DNA of 32,000 nt, taken from NCBI GenBank assembly GCA_942493095.1, contig OW818675.1, positions 1,230,001 to 1,262,000 on the forward strand. Reading direction: 5' to 3'. This DNA comes from Candidatus Electronema halotolerans (GTDB taxonomy: Bacteria > Desulfobacterota > Desulfobulbia > Desulfobulbales > Desulfobulbaceae). The position numbers were made by a program, and so were the translations under genes. The notes under the pieces are model-generated. The model did not search any database, was not told where the DNA came from, and saw nothing but the letters and a program-made list of their open reading frames with translations. Shown in pieces: positions 5,147 to 17,209 of the stretch. The first letter of the stretch is position 1. Every line of letters begins with the position of its first letter.

Positions 5147-5515
5147 ATGCACGAATTCAGCATTTGCCATGCCTTGGTTGAGAAGGTGCTCGAAGAGGCG
5201 GCCCGGCTTGAGCCGCCCGCGCTCCGGGTCTGCAAGACCGGTGTGGCCTGCGGCAGCCTGCGGCAAATCGTGCCGGAATACCTTCAGACTGCCTACACTG
5301 CCCTGACCAAGGGCACCATTGCCGAGGACTCGCTGCTGGAGATTCGGGAAATCCCGGCGGCAGGCCGCTGCGGCTGCTGCGGCTGGCAGGGCGAGCTGCC
5401 GAACAATGTCTTTGCCTGTCCAGCCTGCGCCGCGCCAATCGCGGATATGTGTGCCGGGCAGGAATTATATCTGGAAAACATAGAGCTGGAGCAGGATGAC
5501 GAGACGGGAAATTAA
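5147..5515 (+). CDS. hypA: hydrogenase nickel-insertion protein HypA
   Basis: I chose the internal start MHEFSICHALVEKVLE, the typical HypA N-terminus. Zinc site is CGCCGWQG...ACPAC. Typical length (122 aa). Confidence 0.9.
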   Translation: MHEFSICHALVEKVLEEAARLEPPALRVCKTGVACGSLRQIVPEYLQTAYTALTKGTIAEDSLLEIREIPAAGRCGCCGWQGELPNNVFACPACAAPIADMCAGQELYLENIELEQDDETGN

Positions 5516-6149
5516 GGTCTATCAGGAGCTGATGGGCGACAATGCGCACTGGGCGCAGCAGACGCGGGACTTGCTGGCCAAACAGCAGCTGGCCATGATC
5601 AACCTGATCGGCTCGCCCGGCTGCGGCAAGACCGCCCTGCTGGAGCGGCTGGCCGAGCAGCCCGATCTCCGCTTTGCCGTCTTGGAAGGAGACATTGAGA
5701 CCACCAACGATGCCGAGCGGCTGGCCCGGAAAAACGTGCTGGCCAGCCAGCTCCTGACCAAGGGCAGCTGCCACTTGGAGGCCAAGCTGGTCCATCATGC
5801 CCTCCGCGACCTGCCCTTGGCCGAGCTGGATTTGGTGGTGGTGGAGAATGTCGGCAATCTGGTCTGCCCGGCTGAGTTTGACATTGGCGAGCAGGCCAAA
5901 ATCGCTGTCCTCAGCGTGACCGAAGGCGAGGACAAGCCGCTCAAATACCCGCTCCTCTTTCGCGAGGCCAAGGCTGTCATCCTCTCCAAAATAGACCTGC
6001 TGCCCCACCTGCGTTTTGATCTTGAGGCGTGCATTGCCAATGTCCGCACGATCAACGGTGCTGTGCCCTTGTTTCATCTCTCCTCCGCCTCCGGGGCAGG
6101 CATGGACGATTTTACCGCCTGGCTGGGCAAGGAAATTCTGCATGGTTAA
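5496..6149 (+). CDS. hypB: hydrogenase maturation GTPase HypB
   Basis: P-loop GSPGCGKTALLERL, then CHLEA, ENVGNLVCPA and SKIDLL motifs. Overlaps hypA by 20 nt. Confidence 0.92.
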   Translation: MTRREIKVYQELMGDNAHWAQQTRDLLAKQQLAMINLIGSPGCGKTALLERLAEQPDLRFAVLEGDIETTNDAERLARKNVLASQLLTKGSCHLEAKLVHHALRDLPLAELDLVVVENVGNLVCPAEFDIGEQAKIAVLSVTEGEDKPLKYPLLFREAKAVILSKIDLLPHLRFDLEACIANVRTINGAVPLFHLSSASGAGMDDFTAWLGKEILHG

Positions 6150-8484
6150 GCGAGTCAGAGCCATAATCAGCGGGCGGGTGCAGGGAGTCGGCTTCCGCCC
6201 GGCTGTGCACCGTCATGCCTGCCAAGCTGGCTTGGTCGGTTTTGTCGCCAACACTGCTCGCGGGGTGCTGACCGAAGTGCAGGGCAGCGCGGAGCAGATT
6301 GAGGGTTTTCTTCGCATACTGAAAGAAAATCCGCCGCCGCAGGCCCGGATTGAGGCGGTGGAGCTGACCGAGCTGCCGCCAAACCGGGAAAGCGGCTTTC
6401 AGATTCTGCCCAGCAGGCTGGCAGACAGCACGGTGCTCAGTCCGCCGCCTGACCTGTCCACCTGCGCCCAATGCGGGCGGGAAATCTTTACCCAGGACAA
6501 CCGCCGCTGGCATTATCCCTTCACCAACTGCACCGACTGCGGCCCTCGCTTCACGATCATTGAGGCCCTGCCTTATGACCGCGAGCGCACGGCCATGAAA
6601 GCCTTTGCCATGTGTCAAGAATGCCTTGCCGAATATCGCTCCCCGGCCCGCCGCCGCTTTGAGGCCCAGCCCAATGCCTGCCCGGACTGCGGCCCGCAGC
6701 TCCTGCTCTTGAACAGCCAGGGACAGGCTGTGGAAGGCGACCCTCTCAGCCAAGCGGCCAGCCTGCTCCAAGCCGGAGCAATTGTCGCGGTCAAAGGGCT
6801 GGGCGGCTATCATTTAGCCTGCTCCGCTGCTGACCTCACTGCCATCCGGCGGCTGCGCACGGCCAAGCAACGTCCGGCCAAGCCGTTGGCAGTCATGTTC
6901 GCCTCATTTGCCCAACTTGAACGCTTCTGCACGGTCGGGAAAGCCGAACGAGCTGCGCTGGCCTCCTGCGCCGGGCCGGTTGTGGTCTGCAAACGAAGTC
7001 TTGGCTGCGCCCTACCGCCAGAGATCGCCCCGGACAGCGAGGACATTGGCGCGCTGCTTCCCTACACAGCTCTGCATCATCTGCTGCTCTGTGAAAGCGG
7101 GCCGTTAGTGCTGACCAGCGGCAACTGCGGCGGTCAGCCTTTGGCCAAGGATGAACACGAGCTGGCTGAAATCTTTCCGGCCATCGCCTCCCATGCCCTG
7201 ACCCATGACCGGGCCATTGTCCGCCGCTGCGATGATTCGGTGCTCCGCTTTGCTGACCAGCAGCAGATCGTCATCCGCCGGGCACGCGGCTATGTGCCCG
7301 ACCCGATCCAGCTTCCCTTCACCGGCCCGCCGGTGCTGGCCTGCGGCAGCGACCAAAAGAACACCTTCTGCCTCACACGCGGCAGCCAAGCCTTTCTTTC
7401 CCAGCATATCGGCGATCTGAAAGAATTCCAAACCTTTCAGTTCTTCTCCGAGGCGGTTGCTGATTTCAAGACCCTCTTGGCAATAGAGCCGGAACTGGCC
7501 GCCTGCGACCTCCATCCTGATTACCGCAGCACCCGCTTTGCTTTTGCCCTGAAAGACATTTGTCACAGTCCAGTCCGAGTTCAGCATCATCATGCCCATA
7601 TCGCCTCCTGCATGGCCGAGAACAGACTGAGCGGCCCGGTGATTGGCGTGGCCTTTGACGGCAGCGGCGCAGGCTTGGACGGCACAGTCTGGGGCGGCGA
7701 GTTTCTTATTGCTGATTACTGCGGCTTTGAGCGGGCCGCGCATTTGAAACCCTATCCCATGCCGGGCGGCAGCCGGGTGGTGCTGGAGCCGCAGCGCATG
7801 GCTCTGAGCTGTCTGGCGGCTGAATTCCCTGCTTCTTGGCCCGCATTGGCCAAAACCTTGCTGCCCGGCGTGACTGTCGAGGATTGCCGCTGCTTGGTCT
7901 CGCTGTCTCACAGCCGGATTCATGCGCCGCTGACCTCAAGCTGCGGACGGCTCTTTGACGCGGTCGCCGCATTGATGGGCATCTGCGCCACCTGTTCTTA
8001 TGAAGGGCAGGCCGCAGTCCGGCTGGAGGGACTGACCAAGCCTGACCTGCATGAGCGTTATTCCTTTGCGCTGGAACTGGACAAGCAGCCCATGCAGCTC
8101 TCCTTTGCCCCGGCCTTTGCCGAGCTGGTCGCTGATCTGCAAAAAAAGACGGAACAGGCAGTGATTGCCACCCGCTTCCACAACGCCATCAGCGCGGCCA
8201 TTGTTGCGGTCTGTGAGGAACTGCGTCAGCAGCAGGGTCTGAATACGGTTGCCCTGTCCGGCGGGGTCTTTCAAAATGCCTTTCTGCTCAAGCGTGTCTG
8301 CGCCGGGCTGCGGGAGAAAGAGTTTGCCGTCTTCTGTCATCAGGCGGTGCCGCCCAATGACGGCGGCCTGTCGCTGGGACAGGCGGCGGTTGCCCTTGCG
8401 CAACATGCGGAGCGGGAAAGCAGCCCCCATCTTGCCGAGCTGGGCGGAACTGAGCCGGAGTTGCAGGATATTCCTCGGCGGTAA
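6142..8484 (+). CDS. hypF: carbamoyltransferase HypF
   Basis: The start MVKRVRAIISGRVQGVGFRP (acylphosphatase domain) overlaps the hypB stop (ATGGTTAA). Two zinc-finger pairs are present (CAQCGREI...CTDCGPRF; CQECLAEY...CPDCGPQL), followed by YrdC-like and Kae1-like regions. The ORF-track start 6016 is an upstream TTG inside hypB. Confidence 0.92.
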   Translation: MVKRVRAIISGRVQGVGFRPAVHRHACQAGLVGFVANTARGVLTEVQGSAEQIEGFLRILKENPPPQARIEAVELTELPPNRESGFQILPSRLADSTVLSPPPDLSTCAQCGREIFTQDNRRWHYPFTNCTDCGPRFTIIEALPYDRERTAMKAFAMCQECLAEYRSPARRRFEAQPNACPDCGPQLLLLNSQGQAVEGDPLSQAASLLQAGAIVAVKGLGGYHLACSAADLTAIRRLRTAKQRPAKPLAVMFASFAQLERFCTVGKAERAALASCAGPVVVCKRSLGCALPPEIAPDSEDIGALLPYTALHHLLLCESGPLVLTSGNCGGQPLAKDEHELAEIFPAIASHALTHDRAIVRRCDDSVLRFADQQQIVIRRARGYVPDPIQLPFTGPPVLACGSDQKNTFCLTRGSQAFLSQHIGDLKEFQTFQFFSEAVADFKTLLAIEPELAACDLHPDYRSTRFAFALKDICHSPVRVQHHHAHIASCMAENRLSGPVIGVAFDGSGAGLDGTVWGGEFLIADYCGFERAAHLKPYPMPGGSRVVLEPQRMALSCLAAEFPASWPALAKTLLPGVTVEDCRCLVSLSHSRIHAPLTSSCGRLFDAVAALMGICATCSYEGQAAVRLEGLTKPDLHERYSFALELDKQPMQLSFAPAFAELVADLQKKTEQAVIATRFHNAISAAIVAVCEELRQQQGLNTVALSGGVFQNAFLLKRVCAGLREKEFAVFCHQAVPPNDGGLSLGQAAVALAQHAERESSPHLAELGGTEPELQDIPRR

Positions 8485-8490
8485 ACTGGC

Positions 8491-8516
8491 AGGGTGCATT
8501 CCATGCACCCTTTTCT
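8491..8516 (+). terminator. hairpin terminator after hypF
   Basis: AGGGTGCAT (8491-8499) pairs with ATGCACCCT (8503-8511), followed by TTTCT. Confidence 0.6.
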
Positions 8517-8528
8517 GGTGCTGCACGA

Positions 8529-8639
8529 CTGAGTCTTAATCATGAAGTTGCCGCGTTCTTCAGAAACTGCGGCAAAGGCTGGCAAGACAAGCTGAACGAC
8601 ATTCTTCAGCGGTATGTGGATTCACAGAGGATGGCATAA
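8529..8639 (+). pseudogene. 3' remnant of a BrnA-antitoxin (DUF4415) family gene
   Basis: This frame reads LSLNHEVAAFFRNCGKGWQDKLNDILQRYVDSQRMA*, matching the family C-terminal pattern (LD.DV..FK..GKGYQTRIN..LR.YV). There is no start codon or N-terminal part, and no partner toxin. Confidence 0.45.
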
Positions 8640-8768
8640 GCAGAAAATGCTGGATGTTCTTTGTTTTGATATGCTATCCTAAAGCGGCCTGATTAACAAA
8701 CAAAAGCCTTTTCGCATCCTGCGCAGCCATATCTCGTATAGAGGTAAAAACGTAAAAGAGGTTTATTC

Positions 8769-9308
8769 ATGGCTCTTCTTCCACCAATCGAGATTGAATC
8801 AGAACTAAGCTACGCTTACTTGCATGCCGTGGCAGCAATGGCGGGCATGTCGTGTGAATGTTCAGGCCGACATACTGATAAGCTGGGAGTTGATGCTATT
8901 GTCAGAGCGCAAGAACAGTTTTCCGATGAATCAATTTTGACTGATTTGGCTCTTGACGTACAATTGAAAGCAACAATTGTCGCACCAAGCAAAAAAAATG
9001 ACAGACTTTCATATCACCTCAAAGGAATAGACAGATACGATAAACTGAGAAAATCGACAGTAAATCCAGCCAGAATTCTTGTTGTTCTCTTTCTGCCAAA
9101 TAATGCCGCTGACTGGATGCACCAGACCCAAGAACAGTTAGCAATAAAAAAATGTGCTTGGTGGGTAAGTCTTAGAGGAGCACCTGAAACTGATAACGAT
9201 TCTGGCGTTACAGTATATCTTCCTTGCGCTCAGGTATTCAACGTGCAAAGTCTCAGAGATATTATGACACGTCTGTCTAAACAGGAGGAACTGCTGTATG
9301 ATGTATAA
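8769..9308 (+). CDS. DUF4365-like (restriction-endonuclease fold) protein
   Basis: RBS AAGAGG. SELSYAYLHAVAAMAGMSC...TDKLGVDAIV...LDVQLKAT...ILVVLFLPNNAADWM...AWWVSLRG matches my memory of the DUF4365 pattern (D.GiD...vQvKat). AT-richer than the flanks. Confidence 0.7.
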   Translation: MALLPPIEIESELSYAYLHAVAAMAGMSCECSGRHTDKLGVDAIVRAQEQFSDESILTDLALDVQLKATIVAPSKKNDRLSYHLKGIDRYDKLRKSTVNPARILVVLFLPNNAADWMHQTQEQLAIKKCAWWVSLRGAPETDNDSGVTVYLPCAQVFNVQSLRDIMTRLSKQEELLYDV

Positions 9309-10455
9309 TTATCAATTATTACAGTTAGCCAGTCAGATACTTCCAACTGAAGCAAGAAATTATGCGAAAGTTCATGGCTGGGAGCCTGTCACGGCAGCTA
9401 AAGGCAGGATTTGGGTCTTCAGGCATAGCGTGCAGAAACTTCGCCAGCTCGTTATCCCTATAGACCAAGAGGACGATGCATATTCTGAAGCAATTGTAGA
9501 GGTGTTGCAACGAATAGCTGACGATGAAAAGCGCAGTCCAATTGCTGTTGCTTCAGACCTCCTGATGCCGAATTCAGATATTGTACGGTTTCGAGTCGCC
9601 GGGGATGATATATTAGCTGGAAATTTATCTCTTGAGGATGGAGCATGTCTGATTGAAGGCGCAAAACGAGCTATTCTCTCGTCAGCGTGCTCGGTTATTA
9701 ACAAGACAACACACCATCCAAGAATGAGCAGGAGTGAAGCAGCAGAGATGCTGAAAGCCTGCAAGTTTGGCCAAACTGAATATGGGAGTTTTGTCGCTAA
9801 AATCGCCTGCCCTCTTAATGCGGTGGAGACAAATGCGTCTTTATTAGATGCGACGATGCCGTTTGTACGACATGCAACAAAATTGCTATCTTCAGCATGT
9901 CATCAACTTGTTGAGAGCATTGAAAATGATGCCGTATCAGCATTGATAGAAAACAATTCAGCCAACCCGATAATAACATCTAATCTCTGTGATGCTCTGC
10001 TGCGAATGCAAGGAGGGAGGGAAAAAAGCTCTCTTGGTATCGACATCACATGGGCTTCTAATCCCAATGTTCCCATTCCTGATGTTCCAAGGGGGGTAGT
10101 CTTCAAAGCGGAATACTTCCGAACAGTAGATGAAATACAAAGAGCATTGCGGCCTAAAAAAGAGAGCGACAGTTCTCAAACGTTGCTTGGCACTGTAGAA
10201 ACTTTAAATGGCCCTGTAGGTGAGGATGGCCGCCGTTCCGGTGAAGTGATTTTAGCCCTGCTTCTTGAGGATGAAGAGGTTGTCCGTGCCCGTGCTGTTC
10301 TTGGTCCAGATGAATATGCCCGTGCTGTTCAAGCTCATAACAAAGGGCGAACTTATATAATGGTTAAAGGTGTGCTTCAACGAGGGAACCGAATCAGCAG
10401 CCTGCAACAGGTTGAATCCTTCGATCTTGTAGGTCAATCTCCTCCTTCAGAGTAA
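9298..10455 (+). CDS. hypothetical 385-aa protein, translationally coupled to the DUF4365-like gene
   Basis: GGAGGA lies 8 nt upstream of the ATG. There is an 11-nt overlap with the upstream gene. No Walker A or other motif recognised. AT-richer composition. Confidence 0.7.
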   Translation: MMYNYQLLQLASQILPTEARNYAKVHGWEPVTAAKGRIWVFRHSVQKLRQLVIPIDQEDDAYSEAIVEVLQRIADDEKRSPIAVASDLLMPNSDIVRFRVAGDDILAGNLSLEDGACLIEGAKRAILSSACSVINKTTHHPRMSRSEAAEMLKACKFGQTEYGSFVAKIACPLNAVETNASLLDATMPFVRHATKLLSSACHQLVESIENDAVSALIENNSANPIITSNLCDALLRMQGGREKSSLGIDITWASNPNVPIPDVPRGVVFKAEYFRTVDEIQRALRPKKESDSSQTLLGTVETLNGPVGEDGRRSGEVILALLLEDEEVVRARAVLGPDEYARAVQAHNKGRTYIMVKGVLQRGNRISSLQQVESFDLVGQSPPSE

Positions 10456-10478
10456 TTTATTCTGACGCGGTCGTGTCG

Positions 10479-10618
10479 GAAGAAACCATCTGAATAGTTC
10501 CCCGGAAACATACTGGTATGTTCTCAGAAAACCATCTATATGGTTTTGGAAAACCATTCAGATAGTTTCCTCAGTACCATATAGATAGTTTCTCCGAAAC
10601 CATTCAGATGGTTTTCCG
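10479..10618. repeat. array of six phased 23-bp imperfect palindromes (consensus GAAAACCAT-N4-ATGGTTTTC)
   Basis: Dyad centres are near 10491.5, 10514.5, 10537.5, 10559.5, 10582.5 and 10605.5, spaced 23, 23, 22, 23 and 23 bp. The best units are AAAACCATctatATGGTTTT (10528-10547) and GAAACCATtcagATGGTTTTC (10596-10616). Confidence 0.85.
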
Positions 10619-10653
10619 TCGTCCTTCTCCTTGCCGCATTGCCCTCTATTTTG

Positions 10654-10682
10654 TTGACAAAGCCCAGCCGCCGCCGTATCTT
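10654..10682 (+). promoter_or_regulatory. sigma70-type promoter module A (TTGACA-17-TATCTT)
   Basis: TTGACA at 10654-10659, a 17-nt spacer, TATCTT at 10677-10682. It shares extended similarity with the modules at 13284 and 17685. Confidence 0.5.
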
Positions 10683-10741
10683 GGCCTGATCAAGCAAAAT
10701 CGTTTGCATCATCATATCTTTGAATCCGCATGGAGGGCATT

Positions 10742-11812
10742 ATGGGCACTGTGCAATATCGCGTCGAGCCGAATCCGCTGACCAAACCTGCATCCTACAA
10801 GCTCCGCTTCATCCCCCAACAGACAGCGGGCTACGATGAGCTGGCCGCTGCCCTTGCTGAGGACAACGGCCTGAGCGTCGAGCAGGCCAAGGCATTCCTC
10901 CAGTCAACGGTGAAGAATATCAAGAAGATGCTCTGCAACGGCATTCAGGTGACGCTGGAGGAAGCCTTCACTTTCGCCCTCTCCTTTCATGCCCGCCTGA
11001 CCAACCCGGATGACCCGCTGCCGCCGATTGACGAACTCCTTCGGGTCAGCATTTCGGCCAGTCGTCCTTTTGTCCAAGATATTGGGCAAGATATCACCTT
11101 GGAACGGGTTGCGGCAGCAGAAAAGGCTCCGGCCATCCTCTCCGCCGCAGACACGACCCTGCTGCTGAACAATGTCCTCAACCCGGACGGCGTGCTCCGC
11201 CTGACCGGCAGCAATCTTGCCTTTGACCGCAGCAGCCCGGACTGCCGCTGCCTCATTGTCGGCACCCAGAGCGGCAGCACGGAACAAACTCAGTTCGCGG
11301 GCATCAGCGACAGCGAAGTCCTGCTGGTGCCGCATATTCCGGCGCAGGCAAATCCTTGGAATAACGAGTACACGGTCTCGATCACCACCCGCTACACTGA
11401 ACATGGCTCGCTGCGCACCGGCACTTATGGACGCAAGCTGCGCTCGCCCCTGACTGCTGTCAATCTCAGTCATCCGAACCCGCCGGAGACCGGCATTCTT
11501 ACGGGCAGCGCGGCAAGCGCGTATGTCAGCATCATCGGCTGCACCATCTCGGCCAGCGAGCGGCTGCGCATTCAAGTCGATGCCAGTGTGCAGGAAAATC
11601 AGCTTTCCTTCCGCTTGGTGGCCATGCAGGACGGCGGCGCAATTGGCGGCATGGTGCCGGTGACGGCTAACGGGGAATTCACCCTGCCCGGTTTTGCCGG
11701 TTCCGCAGTCAGCAGCTTGCAGATCAGGGTTGATGACTATGCCGCCCTGCGAACGATGATCCGCAACGATTATGACAGCAGACTGGTGGATATTTTGGAT
11801 TTGCAGGTGTAG
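10742..11812 (+). CDS. HU-like DNA-binding domain protein with DUF4469-like Ig-fold region(s)
   Basis: ATG 10742 follows GGAGGG (10732-10737). The ORF-track start 10730 is an alternative. N-terminus YRVEPNPLTKPASYKLRFIPQQTAGYDELAAALAEDNGLSVEQAKAFLQSTVKNIKKMLCNGIQVTLEEAFTF resembles the Bacteroidota HU-HIG family. The downstream LNPDGVLRLTGSNLAF...YTVSITTRYTEHGSLRTG resembles DUF4469. Called from memory of the families. Confidence 0.6.
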   Translation: MGTVQYRVEPNPLTKPASYKLRFIPQQTAGYDELAAALAEDNGLSVEQAKAFLQSTVKNIKKMLCNGIQVTLEEAFTFALSFHARLTNPDDPLPPIDELLRVSISASRPFVQDIGQDITLERVAAAEKAPAILSAADTTLLLNNVLNPDGVLRLTGSNLAFDRSSPDCRCLIVGTQSGSTEQTQFAGISDSEVLLVPHIPAQANPWNNEYTVSITTRYTEHGSLRTGTYGRKLRSPLTAVNLSHPNPPETGILTGSAASAYVSIIGCTISASERLRIQVDASVQENQLSFRLVAMQDGGAIGGMVPVTANGEFTLPGFAGSAVSSLQIRVDDYAALRTMIRNDYDSRLVDILDLQV

Positions 11813-11905
11813 GATAGTGGGTTGAGAATGGGTGGCGTTGGGGAGGGCGGGTGCTTTCCCCAACAGGGGCTGTCCTTGCAATATTGCAGGGTAATATGAG
11901 GCATC

Positions 11906-12523
11906 ATGGATATTCTGAAGACAGTACGTCAGGCGATAAAGGGATTTTGCGTTGAGTTTGTCAATCATCCCTATCTGTGCTATACAGAGCATGGTCAACA
12001 TGCGTTATTTTATACGCGGTTATATAACCTTCTCCCAGAAGAAGAACGATATGTGTCGTATCAGAATCAAAGGGTTTGTATCCTTCAAAAGGAATATCCA
12101 ACCGCCACGAATTTAGGAAAACCAAAACGGCAACATTGGGATGTATCTGTTTTAGCTACACTGCCAACAAACAAGTTAACGAGAGAAGGTTATGATTATT
12201 TACCCTTGTTAGCCAGTATTGAGTTTGGACTAAATGCAACGGAAGAACATTTGAAGGATGACATCGAACGACTTGGACATCCCGATGCAAATGTCATGCA
12301 AGGGTTTATAGTGCATCTTTATCGATTATCCCCTTCTGGGCATCAGTTTTCTCGCCGAGACTTGTCTAATAAGACGAAGAACATGCTTACACCTCAACAG
12401 GTAGGAGATTTAACCGTAGGGCGGTCTGTCGAAATATACTACGGAATGGCTGATAGCACGGGCAAATATCAATCTGGCGTATGGCATATCAGTGGCGACA
12501 ATGTGGAGCCATTAAGGCCGTAA
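11906..12523 (+). CDS. hypothetical protein (205 aa)
   Basis: An AT-richer ORF with plausible composition. HWDVSVL and SIEFGLN could be nuclease-like motifs, but no family is recognised. The perfect palindrome TGCAATATTGCA lies 18 nt upstream. Confidence 0.6.
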   Translation: MDILKTVRQAIKGFCVEFVNHPYLCYTEHGQHALFYTRLYNLLPEEERYVSYQNQRVCILQKEYPTATNLGKPKRQHWDVSVLATLPTNKLTREGYDYLPLLASIEFGLNATEEHLKDDIERLGHPDANVMQGFIVHLYRLSPSGHQFSRRDLSNKTKNMLTPQQVGDLTVGRSVEIYYGMADSTGKYQSGVWHISGDNVEPLRP

Positions 12524-12524
12524 G

Positions 12525-12542
12525 CTGGGCTTATAAGCCCAG
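12525..12542 (+). terminator. perfect 18-bp palindrome directly after the stop codon (possible terminator hairpin, no T-tract)
   Basis: CTGGGCTTATAAGCCCAG. Confidence 0.3.
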
Positions 12543-12644
12543 TCTAACAACTTGCCGCAGCAGCACTGTTTGCATACGTTGCGCAGGCTGCATATCTTGA
12601 TGGCTGCAAAGCATGGTAAGTATCCATAGCCCAGCTTTTAAACT

Positions 12645-12902
12645 ATGCCTGAATTAAGCAGATTCCTTGGAATAGTGATACGCATGTATCTTCGTGAACA
12701 TGCTCCTGCGCATTTCCATGCCGAGTATGGAGAATACGAAATCACGGTGGATATTGAATCAGGAGTTGTGACGGGAAAGTTTCCACGAAGAGCATTGATG
12801 GCCGTTCTTGACTGGTACGTGCTGCATCAGGATGAACTCATGGCTAACTGGAATGCTGCCATGAACAGAAAGCCTCTGTCAAAAATTGAACCATTGGAAT
12901 AG
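12645..12902 (+). CDS. DUF4160 family protein
   Basis: MPELSRFLGIVIRMYLREHAPAHFHAEYGEYE...LDWYVLHQDELMANW is the canonical DUF4160 pattern. Confidence 0.85.
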   Translation: MPELSRFLGIVIRMYLREHAPAHFHAEYGEYEITVDIESGVVTGKFPRRALMAVLDWYVLHQDELMANWNAAMNRKPLSKIEPLE

Positions 12903-12904
12903 GT

Positions 12905-13171
12905 ATGTTCACACATGTTGAGCAAGCAAAATATCTTGACGGCTATAAAGTATGGTTAGCCTTCAACGACGGAGCAGAGGGTGAAATAGACTTGTCATCT
13001 GAATTATACGGCGAGATATTTGAACCATTGAAGGATGTGTCGTATTTCAAGTCGTTCACCTTGGAAGGCCACACCCTGTCATGGAGCAACGGAGCAGATT
13101 TTGCTCCTGAGTTCCTGCGTGAGCATGTAAACTGCATTGATCGGAGAAAAGCAGTTATAGATGATAACTGA
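12905..13171 (+). CDS. DUF2442 family protein
   Basis: YLDGYKVWLAFNDGAEGEIDLS...IFEPLKD...TLSWSNGADFAPEFL is the canonical DUF2442 pattern. It starts 2 nt after the DUF4160 gene, the usual pairing. Confidence 0.85.
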   Translation: MFTHVEQAKYLDGYKVWLAFNDGAEGEIDLSSELYGEIFEPLKDVSYFKSFTLEGHTLSWSNGADFAPEFLREHVNCIDRRKAVIDDN

Positions 13172-13283
13172 CTTTGAGGAGTTGTGGATTCAACTCGCAA
13201 GTGCAACTTTTCGTATATTCACCTCACTATTGCCGCTCATCCGCTGCCCAGCCGCCGCTGCTTGCAGTAGCGGCCTATCTTCC

Positions 13284-13312
13284 TTGACAAAGCACCTGAT
13301 GCTGCCTATGCT
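13284..13312 (+). promoter_or_regulatory. sigma70-type promoter module B (TTGACA-17-TATGCT)
   Basis: TTGACA at 13284-13289 and TATGCT at 13307-13312, upstream of the SPFH gene. Confidence 0.5.
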
Positions 13313-13400
13313 GCCTGAGCAAGACCAGCATCTCTCGCCTGCCATCGTGCTTGCTGCGGGCAGGCGGGCTGTTGATTGATCAACTTACAAGGAGAACCGC

Positions 13401-15368
13401 ATGGACCGAGAAATTCAGGAACGAAAGCGACAAGGCGGCATCATGGAGCAGCTGCTCAAACTCAGGCTGCGGACCATTTTAGGCTTGCTCCTTGTTTCTC
13501 TGCCGCTCATCTATATCGGCATTTCCTTAGTCTCAATTGAAGAAGGCCATGTCGGCATTGTCTTTGCCAAAGTTGGCAGCAAGCCTGCCGTGGCAGACCG
13601 CTTCATTGTCGAGGCAGGCGAGAAAGGTTATCAGCGCGAGGTGCTGATGCCGGGCATGCGCTTCTACTGGTTCTTGGAGCCATTCTGGAAATACACGATC
13701 ACTGAGGAACCGTTTGTCAAAATCCCACCCGGCATGATCGGGGTGGTCAATGCCAAGGATGGCTATCCCATGCGGCCCGGACAAATTTTGGCTGATTCGG
13801 ATGTCTATGGCGAGGACGGCACCTTTACAATGGGGCAGAAGGGGCCGCGCTTGGAAATCCTCAAGCCGGGCGAATACCCGATCAACACTGCCTACTTGGA
13901 GGTCAAGCAGTTCCCGGCAGTGCAAATCCCGGAAGGCAGCCTTGGGGTTTTGACCCGCCTCTACGGTGAGGATCCGCCGCAGGGCACCATCCTCGTGGCC
14001 AAAGAGAGCGGCTTCCGTGGCATCATCCGGGAAGTCCTGCAACCAGGCACCTATTACATCAATCCCAAAGCCTACAAGACTGAGATCGTTGCAGCGGCCA
14101 AGATTGACAAGGGCCAGGTGGGCATCATCACCAAACGAGTGGGCAAAATTCCGCCTGAAGGCACGATCTTGGTTGATGCGAATGACGAGTTCCAAGGCAT
14201 CCAGAAGCAGGTGCTGCAGCCGGGCATGTACTACATCAATCCTTATGAAAAGGCCCTGCGCATTGAGGATGCGGTATCGGTGCCAGATGGTCATGTGGGT
14301 GTGCAGATTGCCAAGACCGGCATTGCCAAACCGGTTGATCAGCTCTTGGCTAAAGCAGGCGAGCGCGGCATTCAGGAGGACACCATGCCGCCTGGTCTCT
14401 ACTATCTCAATCCCTATGCGGTGGAAGTGGTTAATATTGACATCCGCCAGCAGCGCTATGAAATGACCTACCTTGAAGGGCAAGGCGACACCCAGCAGAA
14501 TGATGCAATCGTCTTTTATTCAGATGACGGCTTTGAAATCGCCATTGATGTGACTGTGCTCTTTCAGGTGCTGCCCAATGATGCGCCTTATGTGGTGGCC
14601 ACCATTGGCCGGCGCATTGACGACATCAAGGAGAAGATCATCCGGCCCCAGGCCCGTTCGTATGCCCGGATACTTGGTTCCCGCTACAAGGGCGAGGACT
14701 TTGTCCACGGCGCGACCAGAGAGACCTTTCAGAACGATCTGCATAAAGAGTTGCAGGCCAAAACGATAGAGAGCCGAGTGCAGATGAATCAGGCTTTGGT
14801 GCGTCATTTTGAGGTGCCGACGCAGCTCCGCCAGCCGATCACTGACAAGGTCATTGCCCTGAAGATGCAGGAGAAGTTTGAGCAGGAGCAGAAGACCCAG
14901 AAAGCCAATGCTGACTTGGCCCGTGAAAAGGAGAAGGTGAACTTTGAGTCTGCCAAGGTGGTGGCTGAGACCAAGAAGGTCAAGGCCATCATCCTGGCCG
15001 AGGAGGAGCGGGAGGTTGAGGAAATCAACGTGGCCAAGAAGGAGTTTATTGCCCAAGGCGAAGCCAAGAAGGTTCAGATCGGGGCGGACGCGAACCTGTA
15101 TCAACAGGAGAAAGAGGCTGAAGGTATTTTGGCCGTAGGCAAGGCTAAGGCAGAGGCTAAGAAGCTGGAGCTGTCTGCCTATGAGGGTGACGGCGGCCTG
15201 CGCTTTGCTGAGGTGGAAAAGGCCAAGGCTCTGGGCAGCGGCATTGAAAAGATATACTACATCCCCTCTGACATGAGCATCAACGCCATTGCCAAGGATT
15301 TCGAGAACGCCATCACCGTCGGCCTGCCAGAGCGGCAGAAGGCGGCGGCCAGTCAAACGCAGCCTTGA
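13401..15368 (+). CDS. SPFH/band-7 (flotillin-like) membrane protein with a five-fold repeated N-terminal segment and a C-terminal coiled coil
   Basis: RBS AAGGAG. One N-terminal TM helix. Five units of hVGv...G..ILv...G....L.PG.YYINP. Then the SPFH core FYSDDGFEIAIDVTVLFQV...ARSYARILGS, followed by an E/K/A-rich coiled coil. Confidence 0.85.
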   Translation: MDREIQERKRQGGIMEQLLKLRLRTILGLLLVSLPLIYIGISLVSIEEGHVGIVFAKVGSKPAVADRFIVEAGEKGYQREVLMPGMRFYWFLEPFWKYTITEEPFVKIPPGMIGVVNAKDGYPMRPGQILADSDVYGEDGTFTMGQKGPRLEILKPGEYPINTAYLEVKQFPAVQIPEGSLGVLTRLYGEDPPQGTILVAKESGFRGIIREVLQPGTYYINPKAYKTEIVAAAKIDKGQVGIITKRVGKIPPEGTILVDANDEFQGIQKQVLQPGMYYINPYEKALRIEDAVSVPDGHVGVQIAKTGIAKPVDQLLAKAGERGIQEDTMPPGLYYLNPYAVEVVNIDIRQQRYEMTYLEGQGDTQQNDAIVFYSDDGFEIAIDVTVLFQVLPNDAPYVVATIGRRIDDIKEKIIRPQARSYARILGSRYKGEDFVHGATRETFQNDLHKELQAKTIESRVQMNQALVRHFEVPTQLRQPITDKVIALKMQEKFEQEQKTQKANADLAREKEKVNFESAKVVAETKKVKAIILAEEEREVEEINVAKKEFIAQGEAKKVQIGADANLYQQEKEAEGILAVGKAKAEAKKLELSAYEGDGGLRFAEVEKAKALGSGIEKIYYIPSDMSINAIAKDFENAITVGLPERQKAAASQTQP

Positions 15369-16320: not shown

Positions 16321-16674
16321 TTAGTAGCTATAGCCTCTGTATTCATACCCATTGTTATTGTTGTAGTAAGGTGTTCCGGGCGTTCTTGGCGTTCCGGGCA
16401 CTCCATAAGCTCCTGGTGCTCCATAAGCTCCGGGCACTCCATAAGCACCGGGTGTTCCATAAGCACCGCGATATTCGTAGCGGCTGCCGCGATAACCATA
16501 ACTTCCATTATTGTAGTACGTTCCTGGATAAGCACCGCGATATTCATAGCGGCTGCCGTAGCCATAGCCGCGTTCATAGCCGCTGCCGTATCCGCCGCTG
16601 CCCTGGGCAGTTGCGAAAAGTGCCAGTACGAGGAATGATCCGGCCAAGGCGATAGCTGCTGTTGTCTTTTTCAC
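16321..16674 (-). CDS. secreted Gly/Tyr-rich low-complexity protein, copy 1
   Basis: GTG start 7 nt after AGGAGG. Signal peptide MKKTTAAIALAGSFLVLALFATA. The mature 94 residues use only 11 amino-acid types, with 23 Tyr and 25 Gly by my count. Internal repeats are SRYEYRGAY x2 and GAYG(V/A)PG x4. Confidence 0.75.
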   Translation of the reverse strand: MKKTTAAIALAGSFLVLALFATAQGSGGYGSGYERGYGYGSRYEYRGAYPGTYYNNGSYGYRGSRYEYRGAYGTPGAYGVPGAYGAPGAYGVPGTPRTPGTPYYNNNNGYEYRGYSY

Positions 16675-16855: not shown

Positions 16856-17209
16856 TTAGTAGCTATAGCCTCTGTATTCATACCCATTGTTATTGTTGTA
16901 GTAAGGTGTTCCGGGCGTTCTTGGCGTTCCGGGCACTCCATAAGCTCCTGGTGCTCCATAAGCTCCGGGCACTCCATAAGCACCGGGTGTTCCATAAGCA
17001 CCGCGATATTCGTAGCGGCTGCCGCGATAACCATAACTTCCATTATTGTAGTACGTTCCTGGATAAGCACCGCGATATTCATAGCGGCTGCCGTAGCCAT
17101 AGCCGCGTTCATAGCCGCTGCCATATCCGCCGCTGCCTTGGGCAGTTGCGAAAAGTGCCAGTACGAGGAATGATCCGGCCAAGGCGATAGCTGCTGTTGT
17201 CTTTTTCAC
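16856..17209 (-). CDS. secreted Gly/Tyr-rich low-complexity protein, copy 2 (identical protein)
   Basis: Same as copy 1. The two CDS differ at two positions, both synonymous (CAG/CAA Gln, TAC/TAT Tyr). Confidence 0.75.
   Translation of the reverse strand: MKKTTAAIALAGSFLVLALFATAQGSGGYGSGYERGYGYGSRYEYRGAYPGTYYNNGSYGYRGSRYEYRGAYGTPGAYGVPGAYGAPGAYGVPGTPRTPGTPYYNNNNGYEYRGYSY

Follow-up and report, generated by a model that had tools for sequence, protein, structure and literature searches.

An intact PDC-M02 gene pair of a DUF4365/DREN nuclease and a predicted OB-fold protein in Candidatus Electronema halotolerans, a candidate mobile immune module

Two co-directional genes of the cable bacterium Candidatus Electronema halotolerans, here called gene 1 and gene 2, were analysed in a 32,000-nucleotide (nt) stretch of its genome (contig OW818675.1, positions 1,230,001 to 1,262,000 of the forward strand). 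This whole stretch is referred to as the window, and coordinates are counted from its first letter. By profile matching, the pair was classified as an intact member of PDC-M02, a candidate defence system of the PADLOC database. Gene 1 carries a nuclease domain of the DUF4365/DREN family with an intact catalytic triad, and gene 2 a predicted C-terminal OB fold. Across genomes the coupling of both genes is conserved, their products diverge together, and the pair occurs on mobile elements and in restriction-modification (RM) and prophage contexts. On balance, we lean towards reading the locus as a mobile anti-phage or anti-plasmid immune module, in which gene 1 would provide the effector and gene 2 the sensor or scaffold.

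A first-pass annotation, made by a model from the letters of the DNA, had described both open reading frames (ORFs). Their coordinates and their 11-nt overlap were reproduced exactly, and the GGAGGA which it had assigned to gene 2 lies within AGGAGGA at 9283-9289. The features of the pair are as follows (residue numbers in amino acids, aa):

8756..8761, + strand: Shine-Dalgarno-like AAGAGG of gene 1, 7 nt 5' of the ATG, read from the sequence
8769..9308, + strand: gene 1 (PDC-M02A), ORF with ATG start, 179 aa
9283..9289, + strand: ribosome-binding site AGGAGGA of gene 2, within the 3' end of gene 1 and 8 nt 5' of the ATG
9298..9308, + strand: 11-nt overlap of gene 1 stop and gene 2 start, indicating translational coupling
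9298..10455, + strand: gene 2 (PDC-M02B), ORF with ATG start, 385 aa
9298..10161, + strand: gene 2 residues 1-288, alpha/beta N-terminal and middle region, carrying Q159-T160-E161-x-G163-S164
10165..10437, + strand: gene 2 residues ~290-380, OB fold of order beta1-3/helix/beta4-5 in the predicted structure

The placement of the gene 2 ribosome-binding site inside the 3' end of gene 1 was also found in close relatives.

For assignment to a known system, both proteins were compared with PADLOC models, a check which the first-pass annotation had recommended. Each was matched over its full length. Gene 1 aligned to PDC-M02A (PDLC04287) with residues 1-178 on profile positions 1-178 of 182 (E=2.2e-77, 257 bits), and all 25 of its 25 PADLOC matches were PDC-M02A models. 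Gene 2 aligned to PDC-M02B (PDLC04323) with residues 2-378 on positions 1-372 of 374 (E=2e-125, 416 bits); the best 25 of its 37 PADLOC matches were all PDC-M02B models. The genes are arranged as in PDC-M02, A followed by B, adjacent and on the same strand. Both full-length proteins, their order and their strand agree with the catalogued system, and no architectural difference was seen.

PDC stands for "phage defence candidate" in PADLOC-DB v2 and comprises 145 single- or multi-gene cassettes obtained by guilt-by-embedding, that is, from genes that lie within BREX, DISARM or type I RM systems (Payne et al., bioRxiv 10.1101/2024.01.29.577857). PDC-M02 is cassette CAS_00021 (FAM_01850>>FAM_00842), for which the supplementary table gives a count of 894, and association with other defence systems is weaker for PDCs than for systems derived by enrichment (Payne et al., bioRxiv 10.1101/2024.01.29.577857). 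Other authors have left PDCs out of their analyses as "unvalidated". The pair was therefore already catalogued as a candidate by Payne et al. and is not a new discovery. The present analysis contributes the OB fold predicted for gene 2, an N-terminal region of gene 2 that has no solved relative and carries QTExGS, the correspondence of gene 1 with the catalytic triad of DREN, the co-divergence of A and B, and the examples from phage LE1 and a type I RM operon. The proposal of an uncharacterised defence pair in the first-pass annotation stands as far as candidacy is concerned, with PDC-M02 matches for both proteins and defence contexts elsewhere, but not as a novelty: the genome scan had called the locus correctly and the locus was already in the catalogue. 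That the pair is a defence system is a prediction, supported at the level of a candidate.

The DUF4365 assignment of gene 1 made in the first-pass annotation was borne out by Pfam (PF14280, E=4.7e-17, 62.8 bits against a cut-off of 24.3, profile positions 2-138 of 139). DUF4365 corresponds to the DREN nuclease domain of SPARDA short-Argonaute systems. There, catalytic residues have been determined by experiment as Q62/K64 in TmuRE and as D41/Q60/K62 in the DREN domain of NbaSPARDA, where D41 and Q60 hold Mg2+. D42/Q65/K67 of gene 1 correspond to D41/Q60/K62 of NbaSPARDA, and Q65/K67 to Q62/K64 of TmuRE. Among 121 close homologues, D42, Q65 and K67 are conserved at 99-100%. They are present in 69-71 of 73 copies from the collected loci, covering all phyla and phage LE1, and the only substitution is in a visibly decayed copy (L027). 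In searches of solved structures by sequence, single or profile, gene 1 yielded no useful match beyond a weak one to the DUF4365 chain 9qbq (E=0.087), in which GvD and vQLK of the gene 1 profile align with GTD and VQVK. An APAZ domain is absent from gene 1, as DUF4365 spans its 179 aa from end to end. From its sequence, gene 1 is a stand-alone 20-kDa PD-(D/E)xK nuclease of the DUF4365/DREN type with the predicted D-QxK active site D42/Q65/K67.

Gene 2 is 100% identical to the hypothetical protein GCAAIG_05630 of Candidatus Electronema halotolerans. It belongs to no Pfam or NCBIfam family and has no sequence relative among solved structures in single or profile searches, so that a well-characterised family for this partner, named beforehand as evidence against a defence pair, was not hit. 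Pfam scans of all 67 members of the gene 2 alignment (A1) revealed no family common to them. In these scans neither a helicase/NTPase domain family nor a DNA-binding family of the helix-turn-helix (HTH) or ribbon-helix-helix (RHH) type was detected in gene 2. A word-indexed search returned 74 homologues. With a profile search of 1.84 billion cluster representatives, 5,086 relatives were obtained at E<=1e-3, and 1,742 at E<=1e-30. The term "orphan", which the first-pass annotation had applied to gene 2, is therefore wrong. The best 150 of the 5,086 relatives are all ~360-407 aa long or fragments and contain no informative fusions; judged from these sequences, the family is large and uniform.

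For structural comparison, an AlphaFold2 model of gene 2 was used (pLDDT 91.5). Its C-terminal secondary structure elements follow the order E294-304, E315-322, E329-335, H337-348, E354-361 and E367-377, which corresponds to an OB barrel of five strands in which a helix separates strands 3 and 4 (residues 294-377). Foldseek searches of the PDB with the gene 2 model gave the ssDNA-binding protein (SSB; ssDNA, single-stranded DNA) 3eiv as best match to this domain (E=2.5e-3, prob 1.0) over ~90-100 columns, and RPA32/14, PriB and SsbA/B were matched as well (prob 0.98-1.0). OB-type matches disappeared when residues 1-288 were searched alone. According to the model, the C-terminal domain is an SSB/RPA-like OB fold, and it may bind ssDNA. 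The statement of the first-pass annotation that gene 2 lacks any recognisable motif holds for Pfam and NCBIfam families, but not for this predicted fold.

Residues 1-288 modelled alone gave a pLDDT of 91.5 and a pTM of 0.89. Foldseek searches of the PDB with this region returned nothing significant, the best match being Pop5 of RNase P/MRP (E=0.07, prob 0.44). Conservation was measured on 50 non-redundant, highly diverged members of the family. The QTExGS motif (Q159-T160-E161-x-G163-S164) is conserved at 94-100%, and W28, P54, R99 and P172 are further top-conserved positions. Conserved positions of the OB domain are G298, L303, L335, Y340, A343, H347 and G358, with Y340, A343 and H347 located on the helix.

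Structural matches of gene 2 to ligases and Cas10-like proteins were discarded as weak (root-mean-square deviation 15-20 Å). The model also matched, by structure, two phage proteins in BFVD, A0A8S5T657 (Myoviridae sp., E=9e-10) and A0A8S5QA00 (Siphoviridae sp., E=5e-8). One of the two is annotated as DUF6575; gene 2 has no DUF6575 match by sequence.

For analysis of the pair across genomes, loci were searched with a 25-sequence subset of the 67-sequence gene 2 alignment, using one genome per species. Relatives of gene 2 were encoded at 51 genome loci. These belong to Desulfobacterota, Myxococcota, Planctomycetota, Verrucomicrobiota, Bacteroidota and Gammaproteobacteria, and further to Cyanobacteria, Streptomyces, Clostridia, Thermotogae, Armatimonadota and Patescibacteria. 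In 48 of the 51, a gene 1 homologue immediately precedes gene 2 on the same strand. One of the remaining three loci is cut by a contig end, and the other two (L013 and L025) truly lack gene 1. Junctions were scored after addition of loci from plasmids, phage LE1, IMG/VR and metagenomes, and 63 of 70 scorable gene 1/gene 2 junctions fell between -14 and +9 nt. Overlaps of 4 nt (26 loci) and 11 nt (20 loci) were the most frequent, followed by overlaps of 8 nt (6 loci) and 14 nt (4 loci); gaps of 2-9 nt were found in 7. The conserved neighbourhood which the first-pass annotation had proposed to look for in other genomes was thus present. Pairwise identities of A and B were correlated across 61 loci (Mantel r=0.92, with 0 of 999 permutations as high), and in 94% of pairs A is the more slowly evolving protein. 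In an all-against-all comparison of ORFs within 2.5 kb, no neighbour family was common to more than 4 loci. A conserved third gene was thus not found, so that two genes make up the whole cassette.

Exceptions to the intact pair were of two kinds. In L010, L042 and L049, gene 2 is frameshifted (possibly by assembly error) and gene 1 is intact, with D, Q and K kept, which fits a nuclease that is harmless alone. In L008, L013, L018 and L025, gene 1 is lost or decayed and gene 2 is kept.

Genomic contexts of the pair were recorded from its neighbouring ORFs. Families met repeatedly beside the pair are subunits of type I RM systems, integrases and serine recombinases. At a locus from a Myxococcales metagenome-assembled genome (L024), the pair (9252-10903) lies between hsdS (5447-6844; PDB 1yf2, 2.5e-22) and hsdR (10935-13589; EcoR124I HsdR, 1e-26). 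This is an independent example of the pair embedded in a type I RM operon. HsdS- or HsdR-like neighbours were also present in L012, L023, L027 and L045. Of other neighbouring ORFs, one matched PglZ (2e-277) and another a type I restriction endonuclease (3e-269). Family counts from the bulk scan of 132 neighbouring ORFs were made without a background control and are qualitative support, not an enrichment statistic. For Pseudomonas fulva (L014), embedding in a type I RM system was rejected, as hsdR is 4 kb away and PADLOC matched none of the eight ORFs that lie in between or upstream.

In the temperate Leptospira phage LE1, the type IIG RM enzyme gp39 (PADLOC E=0) is directly followed by gp38, which matches PDC-M02A (7.6e-51), and gp37, which matches PDC-M02B (9.9e-65). 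Structural comparison revealed the LE1 copy (Foldseek E=2.7e-22, TM 0.6), and hhalign supported it with 97.8%; a tblastn search of phage records with gene 2 gave no match. Further mobile carriers were 12 plasmid records and 12 IMG/VR contigs, and both proteins fall into PHROG families without an assigned function. In Desulfatiglans anilini the pair adjoins a Mu-like element, an HSDR_N protein, an SNF2 helicase and a DUF1156 methylase, and in Pseudomonas oryzihabitans it lies in an integrase-bearing island next to smpB. Single instances elsewhere adjoin a prophage S24 repressor and RecT; SIR2_2, ImmA, D5 primase and a serine recombinase; DUF87, an N6/N4 methylase and dCTP deaminases; or a DEAD helicase and patatin.

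For the mode of action we infer a physical complex of the two proteins, sensing of ssDNA, activation through oligomerisation and a defence phenotype. Gene 1 would be the effector nuclease. Gene 2 would be made in step with it by translational coupling and probably forms a complex with it. The OB fold and the QTExGS domain of gene 2 may recognise an infection cue, most plausibly ssDNA or a different intermediate of replication or recombination, or else a phage protein attached to it. By analogy with SPARDA, the cue-bound gene 2 protein would oligomerise and gather gene 1 subunits, which would then degrade the DNA of the invader, or all DNA of the cell in an abortive infection. In SPARDA, isolated DREN is an inactive 20-kDa monomer and becomes a collateral nuclease only once an Argonaute filament forces it into tetramers. 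Since DREN is inactive alone there and gene 1 is an unfused 20-kDa DREN, gene 2 is read as a regulated scaffold.

The window pair and SPARDA have the DUF4365/DREN nuclease domain and the D...QxK catalytic residues in common. Dependence of the effector on a partner is a feature of SPARDA and is assumed for gene 1 by analogy. They differ in that gene 1 is a stand-alone protein of 179 aa without APAZ and that gene 2 has an unrelated fold with an OB domain. An Argonaute is missing from the pair: gene 2 has no Pfam family and no Argonaute fold match, and its PADLOC matches listed are all PDC-M02B. Similarity of gene 1 to the SPARDA DREN-APAZ chain is weak at the profile level (E=0.087). Tentatively, PDC-M02 might be a widespread Argonaute-free counterpart of SPARDA, in which an OB sensor of phage ssDNA or replication intermediates assembles a DREN multimer and QTExGS forms a new ligand-binding or catalytic centre.

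Two other known systems resemble the pair more distantly. Hachiman combines a small PD-(D/E)xK-type nuclease (HamA) with a larger helicase (HamB) that has a presumed role in sensing the state of DNA and licensing the nuclease. The likeness is one of logic only, a nuclease-plus-sensor pair; gene 2 differs in having no detected helicase/NTPase family, and no Hachiman model was among the PADLOC matches listed. Divona, an experimentally supported anti-phage protein from a Vibrio integron cassette, combines DUF4365 with a RecB/Mrr-like nuclease and a crr6 domain. It shares DUF4365 with gene 1 but is a single fused protein instead of a two-gene pair with an OB-fold partner.

Several observations weigh against an immune function or against parts of the proposed mechanism. 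Matches of the OB fold are moderate (best E=2.5e-3, TM to target ~0.5), and gene 2 has no SSB match at the sequence level, either in Pfam at E<=1 (e.g. PF00436) or among PDB sequences. OB folds also bind proteins and sugars. Gene 2 occurs without a detectable upstream gene 1 in L013 (10001-11131, Chitinophaga sp. sic0106) and L025 (7011-8021); these copies may be solo sensors or decaying systems. Many instances of the pair lie amid housekeeping or metabolic genes without a defence neighbour. In the window itself, the scanned flanks consist of hyp genes, an HU-like gene, pairs resembling toxin-antitoxin (TA) modules and an SPFH gene, without known defence systems. The name PDC-M02 was not found in any paper of the literature library searched, and PDC systems were declared untested by their authors (Payne et al., bioRxiv 10.1101/2024.01.29.577857).

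Among other explanations, a direct restriction-type function, as opposed to sensor-triggered abortive infection, survives best, and we consider it unlikely. Gene 2 would then be a DNA-recognition subunit for modified, damaged or unusual phage DNA, which steers an Mrr-like nuclease as in type IV restriction. This would agree with the D-QxK active site, which is of the Mrr/DREN type, with the lack of a methyltransferase partner, as expected of modification-dependent enzymes, with the nucleic-acid binding that the predicted OB fold implies, and with the frequent position of the pair adjacent to or inside RM systems. The D-QxK flavour of the active site is also that of Mrr-type (type IV) restriction endonucleases. 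However, gene 1 differs from these in having neither an Mrr_cat Pfam match nor a fused N-terminal DNA-binding domain, and any recognition by the window pair would reside in a separate protein. In gene 2, no known modified-base reader fold was detected. SSB/RPA-type OB folds bind single-stranded, not duplex, DNA, and the only characterised DREN nucleases are collateral and non-specific after activation.

It is improbable that the pair is a TA or addiction module which stabilises mobile elements without dedicated phage sensing, with gene 1 as toxic nuclease and gene 2 as antitoxin. The putative antitoxin would be 385 aa long, twice the size of the toxin, encoded downstream and without HTH or RHH detectable in Pfam scans. 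Retention of gene 2 where gene 1 is lost or decayed (L008, L013, L018, L025) looks as if loss of the antitoxin first were lethal, but L010, L042 and L049 show the reverse, a frameshifted gene 2 with an intact gene 1 (possible assembly errors), and isolated DREN is inactive in SPARDA. Tight coupling and co-divergence of the two genes, carriage on plasmids and prophages, and the TA remnants around the pair in the window would suit such a module; embedding in RM operons fits defence better. Least likely, and very improbable, is self-serving DNA processing by mobile elements (replication, recombination or packaging by a nuclease with an SSB-like protein) instead of immunity: a nuclease is indeed paired with an OB-fold protein, phage LE1, IMG/VR contigs and PHROGs all contain the pair, and one instance lies near RecT and UvrD-like genes, but the pair is sporadic across phyla like accessory cargo, occurs at diverse places on chromosomes where no further phage or plasmid core genes accompany it, sits within type I RM operons, and is never fused to, nor consistently paired with, a recombinase.

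If the favoured immune function holds, the pair would represent a second, Argonaute-independent control of the DREN collateral nuclease, which in SPARDA has already been adapted for nucleic-acid detection. The individual locus is ordinary; the family is abundant, as clustering at 50% identity leaves ~5,000 clusters, and it extends over most bacterial phyla as well as plasmids and prophages. Handles for experiment are the triad D42/Q65/K67 of gene 1, the OB positions Y340/A343/H347 of gene 2, and the QTExGS motif in a domain without a solved relative.

Upstream of the pair, the sequence carries two further features:

8491-8511: terminator-like hairpin with T-run, directly 3' of the hypF stop (8484)
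8529-8639, + strand: BrnA antitoxin remnant, without start codon and without BrnT partner

The AT-richer patch after a hypF terminator described in the first-pass annotation was recovered: GC content falls from ~0.61 in hypA/hypB/hypF (hypF 6001-8500) to 0.42-0.47 over 8501-10500, a drop which speaks for mobility of the pair. Its remark on a decayed BrnA fragment was also correct, because no more than the final third of BrnA is encoded by the 36-aa frame that ends at 8639. This frame matches PF14384 (BrnA_antitoxin, E=8e-7, 29.8 bits against a cut-off of 26.1) at profile positions 41-68 of 68 only, i.e. the C-terminal 28 residues. As read from its sequence, the remnant is evidence of earlier turnover at the site. 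No tRNA gene is present in the window, and no integrase turned up among the window ORFs scanned against Pfam.

Five copies of an 18-nt palindromic box AAACCAT-N4-ATGGTTT occupy 10483-10614, past the gene 2 stop and ahead of a sigma70-like promoter (TTGACA-17-TATCTT, 10654-10682); the last four are spaced by 22-23 nt. The array looks like an operator or iteron array. The promoter precedes a gene at 10730-11812 (+ strand) for a 360-aa protein whose N-terminal domain resembles the DNA-binding domain of HU/IHF (PF00216 E=2.9e-5; HU-HIG 9e-5) and which matches DUF4469 (Ig-like) weakly. This protein has no PADLOC match, and it is not kept beside the pair at other loci.

The neighbouring genes noted as TA modules, here TA-like, and the additional orphan ORF are present. 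At 12645-13171 (+ strand), adjacent genes for DUF4160 (85 aa, E=1.4e-20) and DUF2442 (88 aa, E=2e-11) form a small TA-like module. Just 5' of it, a 205-aa ORF (11906-12523) has no family in Pfam, NCBIfam, PADLOC or PHROGs.

Two tandem genes with identical products were found on the - strand at 16321-16674 and 16856-17209, 535 nt apart, with at least 300 nt of each repeat unit 100% identical. The N-terminus of the 117-aa product resembles a signal peptide, and its body is of low complexity and rich in Gly and Tyr (GYGSGYERGYGYGSRYEYRGAY...), a curious find for a cable bacterium.

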